Shown here one piece after another: positions 1,286 through 17,879 of a stretch of 64,000 nucleotides of DNA; position 1 is the stretch's first letter, and every line of letters begins with the position of its first letter. The position numbers were made by a program, and so were the translations under genes. This stretch comes from Candidatus Latescibacterota bacterium (lineage in GTDB: Bacteria; Latescibacterota; UBA2968; UBA8231), in assembly GCA_965248265.1 (NCBI GenBank), contig CBDFJF010000002.1, positions 2,784,001-2,848,000 of the forward strand. The letters are read 5' to 3'. Below the pieces are notes generated by a model. That model made no database searches and had not been told where the DNA came from. It saw nothing but the letters and a program-made list of their open reading frames with translations.

Positions 1286-2685
1286 TCACGGCCGGGGCCG
1301 CCGTTGCCACCGCGGGTAACTGATCGACTCTGTGGCGGGGTGACCTGTAAACTTCACTTTGAACGGTATCTCATATAGATGTACGGCATAAGGCTCGAAG
1401 GAGTCCTCAAACACCCCGTTCTCGACGGCCACCAGTCGATGCTCAGAACGCACCGAAGCACCATCTGGTGCCAATCCGCCATCAGGAACAGGAACCTTGA
1501 ACCGAGCTTTGATCGGCGAATCGAGGCCGTTGACCGCGATCAGGAAGTAGCCGCTGTCAGTTTGCCGCAGTGACAGGTGCAGTGCTGTATATCCAAGTTC
1601 TCCTGATCCGTCCCAGGTGGGCCTTCGACTGTCCTTGGACCCTTCGATGATTTCCCACACGAGCCCGGGCGCCTCCGGTGCCAAGAGGTAAGGCGCAAGA
1701 AGGCGCAATTCCGCCGTCAGGTCCGCCCACTGCGACCAGTACGCCGGATCTGACTGGTTGATCCACCAGTCGCGCCCCTCCTCACGATAGTGGAAGGCAA
1801 AGTAAGTAACGCCGCTGATGCCGCGCGTCACAGCCATATAGGTCATGCAACGAACCTCGACTATCGTCGGGGCACGATCGGGGATGTTACTTTTATGTAA
1901 AAAATCGAGGCCCTGCACGGGCGCCATCTGAATCCACATCCAACCCAGCTTGCCCGCCGCGCCCTTCATCACACTGTCGGAGTATTGGGCAACATGGTTC
2001 AAGGTAAATACAGGGACCGGGTAAACGTCACCCGAGTGGATGTCGGCGACATCGCGATAGTCCTGATAGTCCTTGAGATATCCGTAGCCCAGGTTGATGT
2101 ATACCGGGTGCAGCGGATCAAGCCGCTTGATCAGGTCATATGCCGGCTTGAACCTTTCGGGTGGCACCCTGTAGGGCAGGTCGACGTTAGGCACACCCTC
2201 GGGGCCAGAGACGCGGATATTGGGCTCATCCTCCAACTCCCACACCAGCAGTCCGGGGGCATCGCGACAGGCCATAACTATCTGCTCAAGCACTTCCAGG
2301 TCTTCCCACACACCATTGCCCACTGAAGCCATCGCGTACATGCCGTTGGCATAAGCCTCATCAATGTCGGAACGCCATGACTCCAGGTTTAGGCGGGGCG
2401 GGTGTTGCCCGTGGGTAATGGCGAGATTGAAGCCCTTCTCGCCAGCATCCGGCAGAGAATAATGCCCGTGCCCGACCCAGCCTATGCCCACCGGGAAAAA
2501 CGGTTTCCCGTTTACATAGAGGCCTTCTGTGCGAATCTCCACACGCTTTACCGGCGGGGGCGGACCCGCCTGCGTCGGCAATGCGTTCAGGAAGACGATC
2601 CCCACGAGCATCAAACAGCTTGCGCCATAGCTCCGAGACCACTTAGGGATGAGCCAGTGTTGGTGTGTTGAGGTGATTTTGCCAT
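1286..2685 (-). CDS. Secreted glycoside hydrolase-like TIM-barrel protein, apparent 1-nt frameshift in signal peptide
   Basis: Main ORF 1286-2614 (NGKPFFPVG, WELEDEPN, DVYPVP). A strong AAGGAG RBS precedes an ATG at 2685 whose frame (MAKSPQH...AQAV) stops at 2611; one extra T in the TTT run at 2613-2615 would join the two. Confidence 0.55.
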
Positions 2686-2757
2686 AGCCAGTATCTCCTT
2701 AAGTATCTGTCTAGCGGGGATTTCCCATATAACACGATGGTTAGACAAGCGGTAACA

Positions 2758-2763
2758 TGTCAA
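2758..2763 (-). promoter_or_regulatory. -35 box (TTGACA) of IS110 circle-junction promoter
   Basis: Perfect TTGACA 13 nt before the right-end CT core. Joining the ends gives a 13+2+2 = 17-nt spacer to TATAAT. Confidence 0.8.
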
Positions 2764-2794
2764 CGCCAATCGTGGGCAAATATCGAGTCTCCGT

Positions 2795-3985
2795 TCAGTT
2801 GAGGATAGGTGTGTAAGGTCTGTTGTTTTTAAGGACGCTGAAGACGACGTGGAGCATCTTGTTGGCGACATGGGTGAGTGCGACGAGGTGGTGCTTGCCG
2901 CGATCGATCTGCCGTTGATAGACCTGAGTGAAGAGCGGGTCATGGCTCTTGAAGACGGCGATCTCACAAGCCTGCATGACGGCGGTGCGCAGATAGCGGC
3001 TGCCACGTTTGGACATCCTGCCACGGCCGACTTGGTCGCCGCTGTCGAACTGCTTGACGTCGAGGCCAGCGGTGGCGACGAACTTGCGAGCACCGTGCTG
3101 ATCCTCGGGATGAAACACCGGCAAGATCTCGGCGAGGATCGTTGGCGCCCAGACGGGTCCAAGACCGGGAATGGATTGCAGGAGGGTCTGTTGCTCGCTC
3201 ACGAGATCCCGCAATTGTTCGTCGAGTTGCGCGATCTGATCGATGAGCAGGTTGACGCGCTCCATGACAAAGCGGATCTCCAGGGCCAGATGCTGCTGGC
3301 GATGCGTGAGCGCGAAGGAGTCCTTGGCAGCCGCCTTCAGGGCCTGGGCCTGATCCCGTCCGAAGGCCCCACGGCTGGCATCCTTCAACAGCCGCGTCAG
3401 GCGCCGAATGTCGACGCGGGCCAGCTCATCCGCAGTGGGAAATTGAGCCAGGACGGCGCGACTGGCAGCGCCGAACAGATCGGCGAAGTGCTGTCGGTAT
3501 TCGGGGAAGGCCAGGTCGAGGAGACTGACCAGATGGGTCTTCTCGGCCTTGACCGTGTGGGCGCACTGGAAGCGCAACCGGGTGAGGTCCCGTAGCTGAC
3601 GTACCTGGCGATCGGGAATAGCGCAGACCTTCAGGTGCGTTTCTCGCAGCAGGTGGGCGATCAACAGTGCATCGGCACTGTCGGTCTTGGTGCCACGGAT
3701 GGTGATATTACGCCGCGCTGCAACGACCAGGGGGTTGAGGACCTCGACCGAGTAGCCAGCCAGGATCAACACTTCGTACAGGACCATCCAGTAGTGCCCA
3801 GTGGCCTCCATGCCGACGCGGATGTCGGCGGCGAGTTGTTCGGTCTCGGCGAGACGTCGACACAACTGCTCAACCCCTTCGCGGGAGTGCTGCACGGCAA
3901 GATTTCGGAAGACGGCCTGGCCGTCCTGATCCAACAGTGTGGCGCGGTGACTGCGTTTCGCCACATCGATACCGAGAGTCCACAT
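2795..3985 (-). CDS. IS110 family transposase/recombinase (DEDD RuvC-like + Transposase_20 domains)
   Basis: GIDVAK, MEATGHYW, KTDSADA, SIPGLG, DSG (catalytic Ser), SKRGSRYLR; AAGGAG RBS before ATG at 3985. Confidence 0.95.
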   Translation of the reverse strand: MWTLGIDVAKRSHRATLLDQDGQAVFRNLAVQHSREGVEQLCRRLAETEQLAADIRVGMEATGHYWMVLYEVLILAGYSVEVLNPLVVAARRNITIRGTKTDSADALLIAHLLRETHLKVCAIPDRQVRQLRDLTRLRFQCAHTVKAEKTHLVSLLDLAFPEYRQHFADLFGAASRAVLAQFPTADELARVDIRRLTRLLKDASRGAFGRDQAQALKAAAKDSFALTHRQQHLALEIRFVMERVNLLIDQIAQLDEQLRDLVSEQQTLLQSIPGLGPVWAPTILAEILPVFHPEDQHGARKFVATAGLDVKQFDSGDQVGRGRMSKRGSRYLRTAVMQACEIAVFKSHDPLFTQVYQRQIDRGKHHLVALTHVANKMLHVVFSVLKNNRPYTPILN

Positions 3986-4009
3986 TGGACGAGCTCCTTG
4001 GTCAAGAGA

Positions 4010-4265
4010 CCGAAGCTGCCCACGATCGGGTAACACCAGCTGGCACATCCTCGTAGCCAGATCAGGGAACATGGGTCCCATCAAGCGGTAAGTGCATGTG
4101 CTGGCGCGTATGGCGTTCTATCCGAGAGGACCGAGCCTCGAGGCACGAATAGCCAACCCCAGCAGCTTCACTGATCTAGGATTGCCTCACTGCATCAGAA
4201 AAGCAAGCACTGAGTGCACGCAGCTGGTCGGTGCCCCGCAGGTCAGACCTACCCGAAGTGGTCTG
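4010..4265 (-). ncRNA. Putative IS110 bridge RNA
   Basis: Lies downstream of the -10 box. 5' hairpin CAGACC/GGTCTG, long-range stem GAAGCTGC/GCAGCTTC, two internal loops closed by TGGC/GCCA and GCACAT/ATGTGC. The second loop carries TTACCGCTTG (4082-4091, identical to right end 2746-2755) and TACGAG (4050-4055, complementary to left-end CTCGTA). RNA ends are approximate. Confidence 0.75.
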
Positions 4266-4270
4266 CACTT

Positions 4271-4276
4271 ATTATA
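4271..4276 (-). promoter_or_regulatory. -10 box (TATAAT) of IS110 circle-junction promoter
   Basis: Perfect TATAAT 2 nt inside the left-end CT core (CT-CG-TATAAT). Confidence 0.8.
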
Positions 4277-4280
4277 CGAG

Positions 4281-4312
4281 GATAAATAAGGGCCCGTTAT
4301 CGGTAGTCAAAC
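4281..4312 (-). mobile_element. IS91-like oriIS end interrupted by the IS110 (continues at 2739-2742)
   Basis: TTGACTACCGATAACGGGCCCTTAT closely matches TTGACCACCGATAATGGGCCCTTAT at 9888-9912. The empty site would read ...TTATC-CT-AACC. Confidence 0.7.
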
Positions 4313-4314
4313 CC

Positions 4315-4386
4315 CTCGAAGGCGTCGGCCTGCCGTCACGGGCACCGCCGATCGCCCCCGCACGCGCCAATCCCCAGCATGGTTAG
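4315..4386 (+). pseudogene. IS91-family transposase C-terminal fragment
   Basis: Translates LEGVGLPSRAPPIAPARANPQH, nearly identical to the C-terminus of the transposase at 16380-17879. Confidence 0.8.
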
Positions 4387-4560
4387 GCACGATAGGCAGT
4401 AATTATGGCTAGTTTGGATGCCTCAGGGTCTTGATGTCGCGTGGACCTGGCGCTTTTGTGAGCGGCGCATTTCGATTTTGCGCGCCAGCAACTGACACCA
4501 GGACAGACGATGCGGACAGGGCCCGTGGGACGATTCGAGCATGAGAGACCGCGGCTTCAA
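4381..4560 (-). mobile_element. IS91-like oriIS non-coding end module (no transposase)
   Basis: Ends in TATCGTGCCTAACC. 4381-4470 aligns by eye with 15199-15290 (ttatgg..agttt.gat, tgtcg.gtgga, ttt.tga.cggcg). Right boundary approximate. Confidence 0.65.
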
Positions 4561-4576
4561 CTCGGTCACGGTAGGC

Positions 4577-5662
4577 TCATCCCAAACTCAGCTCGCGATC
4601 GGCTAGGGGCAGGTCGATGCGGACATGTCCCCGGCGGTGGGATTCGCGCATGGCGATAGCGATTTCCAGCGCCTCGCGGCCGAACTCGCCGGGGCAGATG
4701 AGCTCCTCGCCAGCCTCGATGGAGCGGCAGACCCCTTCGATGGCGTCGACCATCGAGCTGCGAGGATGCCAGGGATTGGGAAACTGGTGTTGAACGGCTA
4801 CGCCACTGTCGGGATCCGTCTTCCACAGCTCGAACTGCGCGTGGGCGTTGCGGGAGACGATGCGGCCGTGCTCCCCGATGAACTCCAGCATCCACTGGCG
4901 GCCGCCGTCGATCTCGGACCGCGAGTTGAGCCAGGCCTGCACGCCATTGTCGTAGACGACGTGCCCCGAACCACACAGGTCGGAGTCAGCGGCCGCGGCC
5001 TCGTCGCTGTCCATGTGTCCGAAAACCCAGCGCGCCGGCGCGCCGGCGAAGAGACGCATGAGAGCGAGGCTGTGACTGCCGATGTTGGACAGGCTGGCGG
5101 AGCAGTGACAGACGATGGAGCGCAGCTCGCCGATGGCGCCGTCGGCGATGGCCTGCCTGGCATTCGTGTACCAGCTGTACCAGTTGAGGTGGCAGGCCAT
5201 GGCCAGGATGGTGTTCGTCTCGCGGCAGGCTTCTATCATGGCGTCAGCCTCGGCGAGGGTCCGGCACATCGGCTTGGTGGCGAAGATGGCGCGGACGCCG
5301 GCCTGTGCGAGGCCGATGACGACTTCGGCCCGTTCGTCCGGTCGCGTAGTGACGGCGACGAGATCTGGCTTCTCTATTTGAACCAAATCCCGGAAATCCA
5401 GATAGAGCGCCTCGACGTGCCAGCGGCGGCGGAAGTCGTCGAGCTTGGCCTGATCGATGTCGGCGCCAGCGACGAGCTCGGCACCACGAGCCTCGATGAT
5501 GGCCGGTGCGTGAGCCCAGGGCCACGGGTAGTGAGCCATGCCGACGTGCTCGTCGTCGATGATGCTGCCCATGCGGCCGCAGCCGACGACGGCGGCGCGG
5601 TAGGAGTGCTGTGGCCGCGACTGCTCCACGACCTTGAAGGCTTCGGCGCGAAATCGACTCAT
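4577..5662 (-). CDS. Gfo/Idh/MocA family oxidoreductase
   Basis: VVGCGRMG Rossmann motif; ATKPM variant of EKP. Confidence 0.85.
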   Translation of the reverse strand: MSRFRAEAFKVVEQSRPQHSYRAAVVGCGRMGSIIDDEHVGMAHYPWPWAHAPAIIEARGAELVAGADIDQAKLDDFRRRWHVEALYLDFRDLVQIEKPDLVAVTTRPDERAEVVIGLAQAGVRAIFATKPMCRTLAEADAMIEACRETNTILAMACHLNWYSWYTNARQAIADGAIGELRSIVCHCSASLSNIGSHSLALMRLFAGAPARWVFGHMDSDEAAAADSDLCGSGHVVYDNGVQAWLNSRSEIDGGRQWMLEFIGEHGRIVSRNAHAQFELWKTDPDSGVAVQHQFPNPWHPRSSMVDAIEGVCRSIEAGEELICPGEFGREALEIAIAMRESHRRGHVRIDLPLADRELSLG

Positions 5663-16220: not shown

Positions 16221-17879
16221 GCATAGTGAGGATAAACAGCATTATCGGTAGTCAGTCAAGGTGTTTTGGGCTTTTTCGATTGCGTTGAGGGCCGTGCTTT
16301 TGCGTTGATCGTGGTGCGGTGAACGATGGGGCAGCGGATAGGGTGCCCGGATCAGCGCTTGCGGGCGCAGCGGCAGCTGTCAGCGAGAGATGGGGACGCA
16401 GCGCTGTCTGGGGTGGGGCTCAGGCGGCAAAGTCGAACTCGTGTTGGGATCGGGCCGTGCCGGAGCGATGGGCGGCGCGCGCGACGGCAGGCCGACACCC
16501 TCCAGGTAGCGCTGGATCGAGCCGGGCTCGGTGAGGGCGGCGACAATCCTCATGTGGCCGCCGCAAGCGGGGCACACGGTAACGTCTATTCGAAAAACTC
16601 TCCGGAGGAGGTCAGCCCAGGCCAGGCGGTGCCGGCGTTGGGCGGGGGTGGGCTCCGCAGTATGCGTACAGGGGTTCGCTTCGGGGGCCCCTTCCTTCGG
16701 GCTCGGTACGATCCGTGCCCGGTCGGCGGCGTTGGGTGCCAGGACGCCGTGATAGCGCACCAGGTTGAGGCGCCGCGGCGGTACCAGGGCGGCCAGTTTC
16801 TCAATCAATTCTTGCGGCGAGAGTTCAATTCGATAAGTGCCGTCGGACCAGACCGTTTTCAGGTCAAAGGCCACTCTCTCGGCATCCAGGATCTGCAGTC
16901 GGCCCGCTGCCAGCGGCGGTCGATTGACGTAGCGGCACAGCCTTTCCAGGCGGGTGCGATCGGCGGCCTGCACGCGGGTGGCCGCATGCAGGGAGAAACC
17001 GCGCGCGGCGAAGCACAACGGACCGGTGCGGATGCCCTGTTGGGGATCGAGCAGACGCCGGCGCACGGGCTGGCCGGCGCGCTCGCCGGTGGCTACCTGG
17101 CCCTGGATCGAAGCCGCCGTGATCGTGGCCAGCAGCGGCTCCTGCTCCATGAGCAGATCGGTATTGCTCTCTTCCAACAGGCCGCGCCGTTGCAGCAGGA
17201 GCACCACCCGTTGGGCCGTGGTCTCGACGATCTGTTGCACGTCGTCGTCGCTCAGTGGTGGCGCCGGCACGAATTCCGGACCGTCCTCGCCGTCGACGTA
17301 GACACTGTCGATCATGAGGACATGGTTGTGGGGATTGAGGTTTAAAGCAGAACCGAATCGCTGCACGAAGGTGACTGAGCCGCAGCGACTGTCTTCATAA
17401 CCCTGCTCCCGTGCCTGACGACGATACCAGCCGTAGACGACACGCAGGAAGACGGCCAGCACCGCCCCGACCAGCTCTTTGTCCCATGCCAGGCGATAGC
17501 GGATCTCGTACGGCAGGCTGAGCACCCACTGCCGCACCGGTACCTGAGGCAGGACCTCGTCGGTGAGTCGGGCGGCGGTGTCCGCCATCCGTCGTCCCAT
17601 ACAACTCGGGCAGAAGGAACGTCGTTGGCACGAGAACGCGACGACGCGATCCTTGCAGCAGTCCTTGCACCGCACCCGCAGAAACCCGTGAGCGAGAATT
17701 CCGCACCGGAGATAGGCGTGCAGCTCGTCCTCGACGTGGATCGGCAGCTGCCGATCCGAGGTGCGGGTGCGCTCGATGAAGGTCTCCATGTGCTCGGCCA
17801 GCACCTGGTAGAGGGGGTCTGTCTCGGGTGTGCGGGCAGGCTCGCCAGCGACGCAGACACATCTTCCCCGGTGTAACAA
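16221..17879 (-). mobile_element. Near-complete IS91-family element
   Basis: Transposase plus oriIS-like end (GATAATGCTGTTTATCCTCACTATGC) ~200 bp downstream of the expected stop. terIS end not defined. Confidence 0.75.
16380..17879 (-). CDS. IS91 family transposase (Zn-binding + Y2/HUH domains), C-terminal frameshift
   Basis: YLRCGILAHGF..C..C, FSCQRRSFCPSC, NPHNH (HUH), LCRYVNRP, VRYHGVLAPN. The homologous end EFDFAA* (stop 16420-16422) is out of frame by one base near 16447. Confidence 0.9.
   Translation of the reverse strand: MLHRGRCVCVAGEPARTPETDPLYQVLAEHMETFIERTRTSDRQLPIHVEDELHAYLRCGILAHGFLRVRCKDCCKDRVVAFSCQRRSFCPSCMGRRMADTAARLTDEVLPQVPVRQWVLSLPYEIRYRLAWDKELVGAVLAVFLRVVYGWYRRQAREQGYEDSRCGSVTFVQRFGSALNLNPHNHVLMIDSVYVDGEDGPEFVPAPPLSDDDVQQIVETTAQRVVLLLQRRGLLEESNTDLLMEQEPLLATITAASIQGQVATGERAGQPVRRRLLDPQQGIRTGPLCFAARGFSLHAATRVQAADRTRLERLCRYVNRPPLAAGRLQILDAERVAFDLKTVWSDGTYRIELSPQELIEKLAALVPPRRLNLVRYHGVLAPNAADRARIVPSPKEGAPEANPCTHTAEPTPAQRRHRLAWADLLRRVFRIDVTVCPACGGHMRIVAALTEPGSIQRYLEGVGLPSRAPPIAPARPDPNTSSTLPPEPHPRQRCVPISR

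Follow-up and report, generated by a model that had tools for sequence, protein, structure and literature searches.

Bridge-recombinase elements, the insertion sequences of the IS110 family that encode a guide ("bridge") RNA, are a kind of mobile element described in 2024, and the excerpts of the literature on which we draw here distinguish an IS110 group, with a long left end and a short right end, from an IS1111 group built the other way, with a long right end holding a predicted RNA and with subterminal inverted repeats of 7–17 bp (PMC11208160). In the same excerpts, promoter halves split across the two ends are an arrangement described for IS110 elements. Here we analyse a 64,000-nucleotide (nt) stretch of the genome of Candidatus Latescibacterota bacterium (GenBank assembly GCA_965248265.1, contig CBDFJF010000002.1, positions 2,784,001 to 2,848,000; hereafter the window), whose positions 2743–4280 carry on the minus strand what is, by its features, an IS110-group insertion sequence of intact structure, a bridge-recombinase element of the IS110 family. 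Taking the locus as a whole, we hold it very probable that the element is an intact bridge-recombinase system with an IS621-like circle mechanism and donor register, that its targets are the ends of IS91-family elements, and that its present guides misfit the site in which it sits.

Several described members of the family offer points of comparison. The transposase of ISCro4 (PDB 9t56) is the best solved relative of the window protein (8.7e-19), with the same domain order and motifs, and is compared by protein only; IS621 of Escherichia coli (PDB 8wt6) is compared by protein, ends and RNA in the sections below. On the side of the targets, IS4321 and IS5075 reportedly insert into the terminal repeats of Tn21-family transposons, and so resemble the window element in belonging to the same family and in targeting the end of another mobile element; they are members of the IS1111 group, whereas the window element has a long left end and IS91-family ends as its targets. 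IS621 differs in targeting REP elements, and ISPpu9 and ISPpu10 of Pseudomonas putida, IS110-family elements that in the excerpts available insert into one repeated, REP-type intergenic host sequence, are likened here by description only.

Recombinase and ends of the element

An earlier note on this DNA had described an open reading frame (ORF) with intact catalytic motifs, and the protein comparisons agree with it: the 396-aa ORF is open, and its product matched PF01548 (DEDD_Tnp_IS110, 2.2e-40), PF02371 (1.8e-17) and the NCBIfam model NF033542 ("IS110 family RNA-guided transposase"), the last with 231.9 bits against a cut-off of 140. The solved transposase chains of ISCro4 and IS621 both matched the recombinase at E-values of about 1e-18. 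All five catalytic residues of the DEDD/Ser set (D7, E60, D102, D105 and S315) align with D11, E60, D102, D105 and S241 of IS621, whose roles are taken from excerpts of the structure paper (PMC11208158). The two protein domains, the catalytic D/E/D/D/S residues and the CT core are therefore shared with IS621, although its protein is a distant one (E 5.5e-18, in two partial stretches) and its chain has 328 residues against 396 aa here.

Outside the ORF the element has 295 nt of non-coding sequence on the left and 52 nt on the right, and long terminal inverted repeats are absent. Membership of the IS1111 group was considered and ruled out, the right end being only these 52 nt and the RNA modules lying inside the 295-nt left end; a long, RNA-encoding left end is a further likeness to IS621. 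A search of the genome (two contigs, 7.3 Mb; places in it are written below as G000:contig:position) gave 12 matches: besides the window copy these were nine fragments and two further full-length copies (L002 and L003, 84–85% identical to the window copy). For L002, the 13-mer that joins left flank, CT and right flank occurs exact and uninterrupted at three other genome places, and the equivalent 13-mer for L003 at five, so that the ends of these paralogues are fixed at a CT that is single in the empty site. Of the two CT copies flanking the window element (Table 1), one is likewise the target's own. The search of the genome for an empty twin of the window copy's site gave no exact match and one at one mismatch in an unrelated context, and no orthologous empty site was found among the 20 relatives' genomes searched with the right flank, which yielded only two weak partial matches; the ends of the window copy are accordingly assigned by homology to its paralogues and relatives.

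Contigs from four public runs of one sample bridged both junctions exactly and held neither a joint of 2743 with 4280 nor an empty site, a result without bearing on the circle since contigs drop rare forms. Over window positions 2400–4600 the same sample also has many contigs that are 90–95% alike to parts of the element, so that diverged copies or related strains coexist in it.

At the level of the sequence of its ends, the element is one in which a consensus sigma-70 promoter would be rebuilt when those ends are joined. As the earlier note had proposed, TTGACA and TATAAT would come to stand 17 nt apart at a single CT (13+2+2 = 17), and this spacing arises only on joining; in the integrated copy, no promoter-like site was found on either strand of 2650–4400 at the threshold of the tool. 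The split halves are retained in 10 of 10 relatives with 47–78% protein identity, all of which have CG followed by a TAT(A/G)(A/T)(A/T) hexamer at the left end. At the right end the −35 hexamer is retained at an unchanged distance from the core, as TTGACT in nine of the ten and in a weaker form in L100; L016 and L100 have one extra base in the right-end segment. A promoter rebuilt across the joined ends is again a trait shared with IS621, and by analogy with that system the window element would excise as a circle, the right and left ends joined across CT would form the sigma-70 promoter from which bridge RNA and recombinase are expressed, one loop of the RNA would hold the donor junction and the other the target, and the recombinase would exchange strands at CT, aided by handshake bases.

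Predicted bridge RNA

The left end encodes an RNA with two predicted internal-loop modules that are bounded by covarying helices. Relatives were taken from genomes and metagenomes, and 12 distinct sequences were aligned; in this alignment a seven-helix model pairs 94.3% of cells, as compared with 86.7 ± 0.8 when columns were shuffled (the model's value was reached in 0 of 500 shuffles), with changes on both sides at 13 of its 32 pairs, while controls whose partner strands were slid by 1–3 columns pair 44–55%. Each loop module is built as stem, 5′ strand, hairpin, 3′ strand and stem, as in IS621, and the likeness extends to the order of the modules, target loop before donor loop, and to their content, each with a same-sense guide on the 5′ side, an antisense guide on the 3′ side and a two-base handshake after the latter. 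From the position of the −10 hexamer, the predicted RNA would start near 4264.

The RNA departs from that of IS621 in an extra hairpin before the target loop and in a longer donor stem, together with a probable closing helix and three-way junction. In the RNA of the clade, this helix, P1 (GGGGU/ACCCC), seems, if tentatively, to close both modules into the three-way junction: four of its five pairs are invariant, the single compensatory change occurs in L100, and the window copy is short of one C in the 3′ strand. An alternative helix, between the bases 5′ of the target loop and the bases after it, was rejected at 80.3% of cells paired against 93–97% for the helices that it would replace, and is a possible alternative state. 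Pairs placed by RNAalifold between part of the left donor guide and the 3′ donor strand were omitted, as they barely vary.

The RNA folding and covariance modelling that the earlier note had suggested as a check gave covarying helices across the 12 sequences and an unremarkable fold of the single sequence. Two results weigh against the account given above, and are joined below by further ones on the donor register and on the window copy itself: a search of 2500–4600 with the Rfam covariance models gave no match at E up to 1, and the single-sequence fold had z = −1.32, with 21 of 200 shuffles folding as well or better. Because that fold is no better than shuffles, the structure is argued from the relatives only. 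A covariance model built from the alignment (R1) and run over 160 loci scored at least 119 bits at only 11 of them, those used to build it or identical to one, and elsewhere gave 29 weak matches of at most 22.8 bits, all on the gene strand and upstream of the ORF; being strong only on its own loci, R1 carries little information on distant relatives. A k-mer search for guide and right-end copies in loci with 33–40% protein identity was dropped, its matches being mostly AT-rich chance ones.

Donor loop and guide register

Both ends of the element are copied or complemented in the second loop, as had been claimed before. TTACCGCTTG stands at 2746–2755 and at 4082–4091 only, in the same sense (two occurrences in the 64-kb window against 0.05 expected; two matches in 0 of 100 shuffles), and UACGAG is the reverse complement of 4280–4275, that is, of CT and the first four bases of the left end. 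The CGAG of the right donor guide never varies among the relatives. Opposite donor position 12 (T), four of the 12 sequences have A and eight have G, and the resulting G-T wobble is shared with IS621 as described in the excerpts. L098 has a compensatory change at donor position 6, from G to A, in the guide and the right end alike.

The left donor identity ends one base before the core, at 2746, with A, U and G as the next RNA bases opposite T, C and T, which is where the earlier note had placed its end and from which it had suggested a variant geometry of donor recognition. What stands of that suggestion is a conserved mismatch at position 7 and a longer guide; the IS621 register, on the other hand, appears to be kept, and the IS621 guide also skips the second core base, for in the excerpts of the structure paper its left donor guide A123–C130 pairs positions 1–8 only, as far as the first core base, after which comes a linker (PMC11208158). 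With the IS621 guide reaching only the first core base and the clade seemingly keeping that register, the case for a variant geometry is weak.

We consider it most likely that the left donor guide of the window element uses the IS621 register, out to the first core base, and that specific to the clade are an A-A mismatch that is fixed at position 7, G-U or G-C pairing at position 8 and a guide reaching three bases further from the core, such that 10 contiguous guide bases extend further out than in IS621. At position 7 the RNA has A in 10 of 12 sequences, giving the mismatch, and U in L016 and L100; a donor screen of IS621, as excerpted, found this position mismatch-tolerant. At position 8 it has U in eight and C in four, both of which can pair with the bottom-strand G. 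It is these two bases that a different reading would take as an unpaired linker, with the left donor guide shifted outward to end at donor position 6 and the core read only by the right donor guide, which would amount to a variant geometry. Such a reading would suit the mismatch in 10 of 12 at position 7, the guide lying three bases further out than the 8-nt guide of IS621, and the two-base linker A131–U132, of the same letters, that follows the left donor guide in IS621 (PMC11208158, in excerpt); yet L100 pairs unbroken through the core C, L016 pairs at 7 and wobbles at 8, a purine occurs at position 8 in none of the 12, and the 10-mer and the hairpin are always separated by two RNA bases, in register with positions 7 and 8, and we judge an unpaired linker to be unlikely. 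For its part, the argument for the IS621 register uses the identity of the bases and two divergent relatives rather than a structure.

Target loop and fit to insertion sites

Among the relatives, the right flank can be predicted from the 3′ strand of the target loop when this is read in reverse, and the left flank from the 5′ strand. Guides matched the flanks of their own element at 3.42 of 5 positions on the right and 5.08 of 7 on the left (12 elements each), as against 1.42 of 5 and 2.81 of 7 for the flanks of another element (142 pairs); in this scoring L015 has no right flank and L097 no left flank, and the guides of L003 are the same as those of L002. Each 3′ guide is followed by two putative handshake bases. 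After the target guide these are AC in 11 of 12, able to pair with donor positions 7 and 6; after the right donor guide, the first of the two can pair with target position 7 in 8 of 12 by hand count.

This covariation with the flanks also bears on whether an RNA guide is needed at all, because the left end could be a regulatory 5′ leader only and its matches to the ends could be subterminal repeats bound by protein. The absence of an Rfam match, and the RNA being known here from sequence alone, would agree with such a leader, but covariation is seen in the helices on either side of both loops, the first loop's 3′ strand varies together with the right flank across unrelated sites, unlike a protein-bound repeat, and the protein belongs to a family for which RNA guidance has been demonstrated (so stated in the excerpted sources); we therefore regard a mere leader as very improbable.

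The window copy itself fits its site poorly under the preferred guide assignment. Against its own flanks the left guide matches 2 of 7 in the standard register (at best 4 of 7 over three offsets) and the right guide 3 of 5, left and right values that foreign guide–flank pairs reach in 42 and 27 of 142 cases. It departs from 11 of 11 relatives in having the handshake AA rather than AC, two changed bases and one C too few in P1, and has no near-identical sister in the genome; given these RNA departures and the missing sister, it may be less active than L002 and L003. The fit of the paralogues is itself imperfect, L002 matching its left flank at only 3 of 7 and L003 needing either a shifted register or one additional RNA base to fit. 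For IS621, insertion into sites where only the core and one arm match has been reported (preprint 10.64898/2026.08.31.748434, in excerpt), and the misfit of the window copy may stem from such a one-arm ("half-match") insertion, from guidance in trans by another copy or from a later change of its guides. The left flank of a solo left-end fragment, L012, resembles that of the window copy, so that a guide for that type of site may once have existed.

It is also conceivable that the window copy is a well-preserved but immobile relic, its ORF still open and its guide RNA drifted. The nearest copies being only 84–85% identical, the departures from all 11 relatives at conserved RNA positions, the misfit of the target guides to their own flanks, and the nine fragmentary copies in the same genome, by which decay is common, could all be taken that way. 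Set against this, the copy has an intact ORF with all catalytic residues, two intact donor guides and promoter halves at consensus, and its target guides have at least one exact empty match, on the other contig near G000:C1:1110827, with near-exact copies at several places, which suits a functional guide better than a drifted one; we think a relic somewhat unlikely and prefer the reading of the window copy as an intact element.

Ends of IS91-family elements as probable targets

The left flanks of the window copy, L002 and L003 share a motif that is repeated across the genome: a loose pattern found 49 copies, of which contig C2 has 46, and the copies are often solo ends that stand immediately before a gene. 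The genome holds an IS91-like transposase in five near-full-length copies and many C-terminal remnants (47 high-scoring segment pairs in total), and in the window a 499-aa protein at 16380–17879 (minus strand) has Y2_Tnp and Zn_Tnp_IS91 domains. Sixteen of the 49 motif copies lie at most 400 nt downstream of an IS91-like C-terminal match, and the motif follows the gene in four of the five near-full-length copies, with copy-to-copy similarity ending 6–7 nt past CT. The gene next to the window copy on its right has a paralogue that lacks both the motif and the start of the right flank. The metagenome loci L093 and L094 sit in the same kind of motif. From these observations, the natural targets in this genome appear to be the terminal roughly 20 bp of IS91-family elements or solo ends. 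The origin end of IS91 lies after the transposase gene (PMC13181058, in excerpt), and by analogy the targeted IS91-like end would be the origin-side end.

The motif was also considered as a host promoter, which was rejected as it matches IS91-like ends instead; placement just upstream of an ORF is a test that 388 of 500 random positions also pass. In the literature searched, taken in excerpts and excepting the supplementary tables of bridge-RNA papers, we found no report of IS91 ends as targets of IS110 elements.

Remnants of IS91-like elements lie close to the insertion. A GC-rich repeat some 60 nt long, with more than 10 occurrences across the genome, occupies window positions 4314–4376, and its plus strand encodes a C-terminal peptide of an IS91-like transposase, making it an inverted gene remnant between two end motifs. 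An empty site that suits the guides of the window copy (left 6 of 7, core, right 3 of 5) lies at 4393–4380 on the minus strand, about 105 nt upstream of the element and inside a second IS91-like end remnant. Elsewhere in the genome, G000:C2:1134287-1156245 holds eight nearly identical 60-nt copies of the end motif on one strand, 1.3–5.7 kb apart and array-like, several of which adjoin IS91-like C-terminal remnants, and the 223 nt to the left of L002 (G000:C2:2707353-2707575) are repeated with 100% identity 1.9 kb away with an empty target, a local duplication of the IS91-like end.

Copies and their decay

L002 and L003 differ at 3 of 1536 bases and yet occupy different sites, so the family moved recently. 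The decayed copy L005/L006 (G000:C2:2652853-2653866) has TT at its left junction and CT at its right one, a pattern that recombination of a CT-core donor with a TT-core target would produce, and has a 3-nt deletion in the target loop. In the metagenome locus L095 (76% identical), the right end near 1738–1760 and its CT are followed by bases resembling the element's own left end, which could be a donor-like half-site insertion or a tandem junction; a different coding sequence takes the place of the 5′ part of this relative.

On the right side of the window element, a 24-codon ORF with a good ribosome-binding site (2611–2684, minus strand) precedes and overlaps the start of a 442-aa ORF, an arrangement kept in a 79%-identical paralogue at G000:C2:2726507.

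Table 1. Features of the window element and its flanks, in window coordinates; the last column gives the basis of each assignment or a remark.
Feature	Position	Strand	Basis or remark
Entire IS110-group element	2743..4280	-	1538 bp, CT core copy at each end
Left core CT	4279..4280	-	same junction in L002, L003 and nine relatives
Right core CT	2743..2744	-	read from sequence
Left flank, conserved terminal motif of IS91-like end (putative target)	4281..4311	-	
Right flank, final bases of that IS91-like end, followed by the next gene's upstream region	2734..2742	-	
Recombinase ORF, 396 aa	2795..3985 (ATG 3985)	-	profile matches and catalytic alignment
Ribosome-binding site AAGGAG	3994-3999	-	8 nt upstream of ATG
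-35 hexamer TTGACA, right end, 13 nt from core	2758..2763	-	read from sequence
-10 hexamer TATAAT, left end, 2 nt (CG) from core	4271..4276	-	read from sequence
5′ stem-loop of predicted RNA	4244..4265	-	single-sequence fold
Hairpin "a", upstream of target loop	4165..4204	-	helix 1; 2 of 5 pairs changed on both sides
Closing helix P1 (proposed), 5′ strand GGGGU	4156..4160	-	helix 2; partner 4027-4031
Target-binding loop module (predicted), hairpin 4126-4139	4111..4155	-	helices 3 and 4; guides covary with relatives' flanks
Left target guide, 7 nt + CU	4141..4149	-	position by homology with flank-matching relatives
Right target guide	4118..4124	-	putative handshake bases AA at 4116-4117 after it
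Donor-binding loop module (predicted)	4034..4106	-	helices 5, 6 and 7
Donor module stems	outer 4101-4106/4034-4039; inner 4092-4095/4043-4046; hairpin 4065-4079	-	
Left donor guide, 10 nt, then A (4081) and U (4080)	4080..4091	-	U: probable G-U with first core base
Right donor guide UACGAG	4050..4055	-	putative handshake bases GA at 4048-4049 after it
Left-donor segment of right end	2746..2755	-	identical to left donor guide

Implications

The known mechanism of IS110 elements is unchanged by these observations, and the window element is an ordinary further member of the IS110 group. A stronger proposal, that the clade (47–78% protein identity, from several phyla-level sources) represents a distinct bridge-RNA architecture and ecology, with a three-way junction made by the closing helix and the extended donor stem, an obligatory core-adjacent mismatch and, in this genome, homing to the origin side of IS91-family elements, is one that we put forward only as a possibility, on the doubtful side of even.

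What the locus offers is a bridge-recombinase system in which the ends, the promoter halves, the four guides and the handshake bases can all be assigned from the sequence, and a clade that supplies natural variation around them, through the mismatch fixed at position 7, the alternation of U and C facing the first core base, and the compensatory change at position 6. The locus also points to IS91-family ends as a natural target class for an IS110 element, which, if the stronger proposal is true, would be an RNA-guided parasite of another transposon, cutting off the last 8–9 bp of its host element. Copies at sites that fit one arm would, if that reading of them is true, be natural half-match insertions, and copies in partly matching sites bear on the specificity of bridge recombinases as editing tools.

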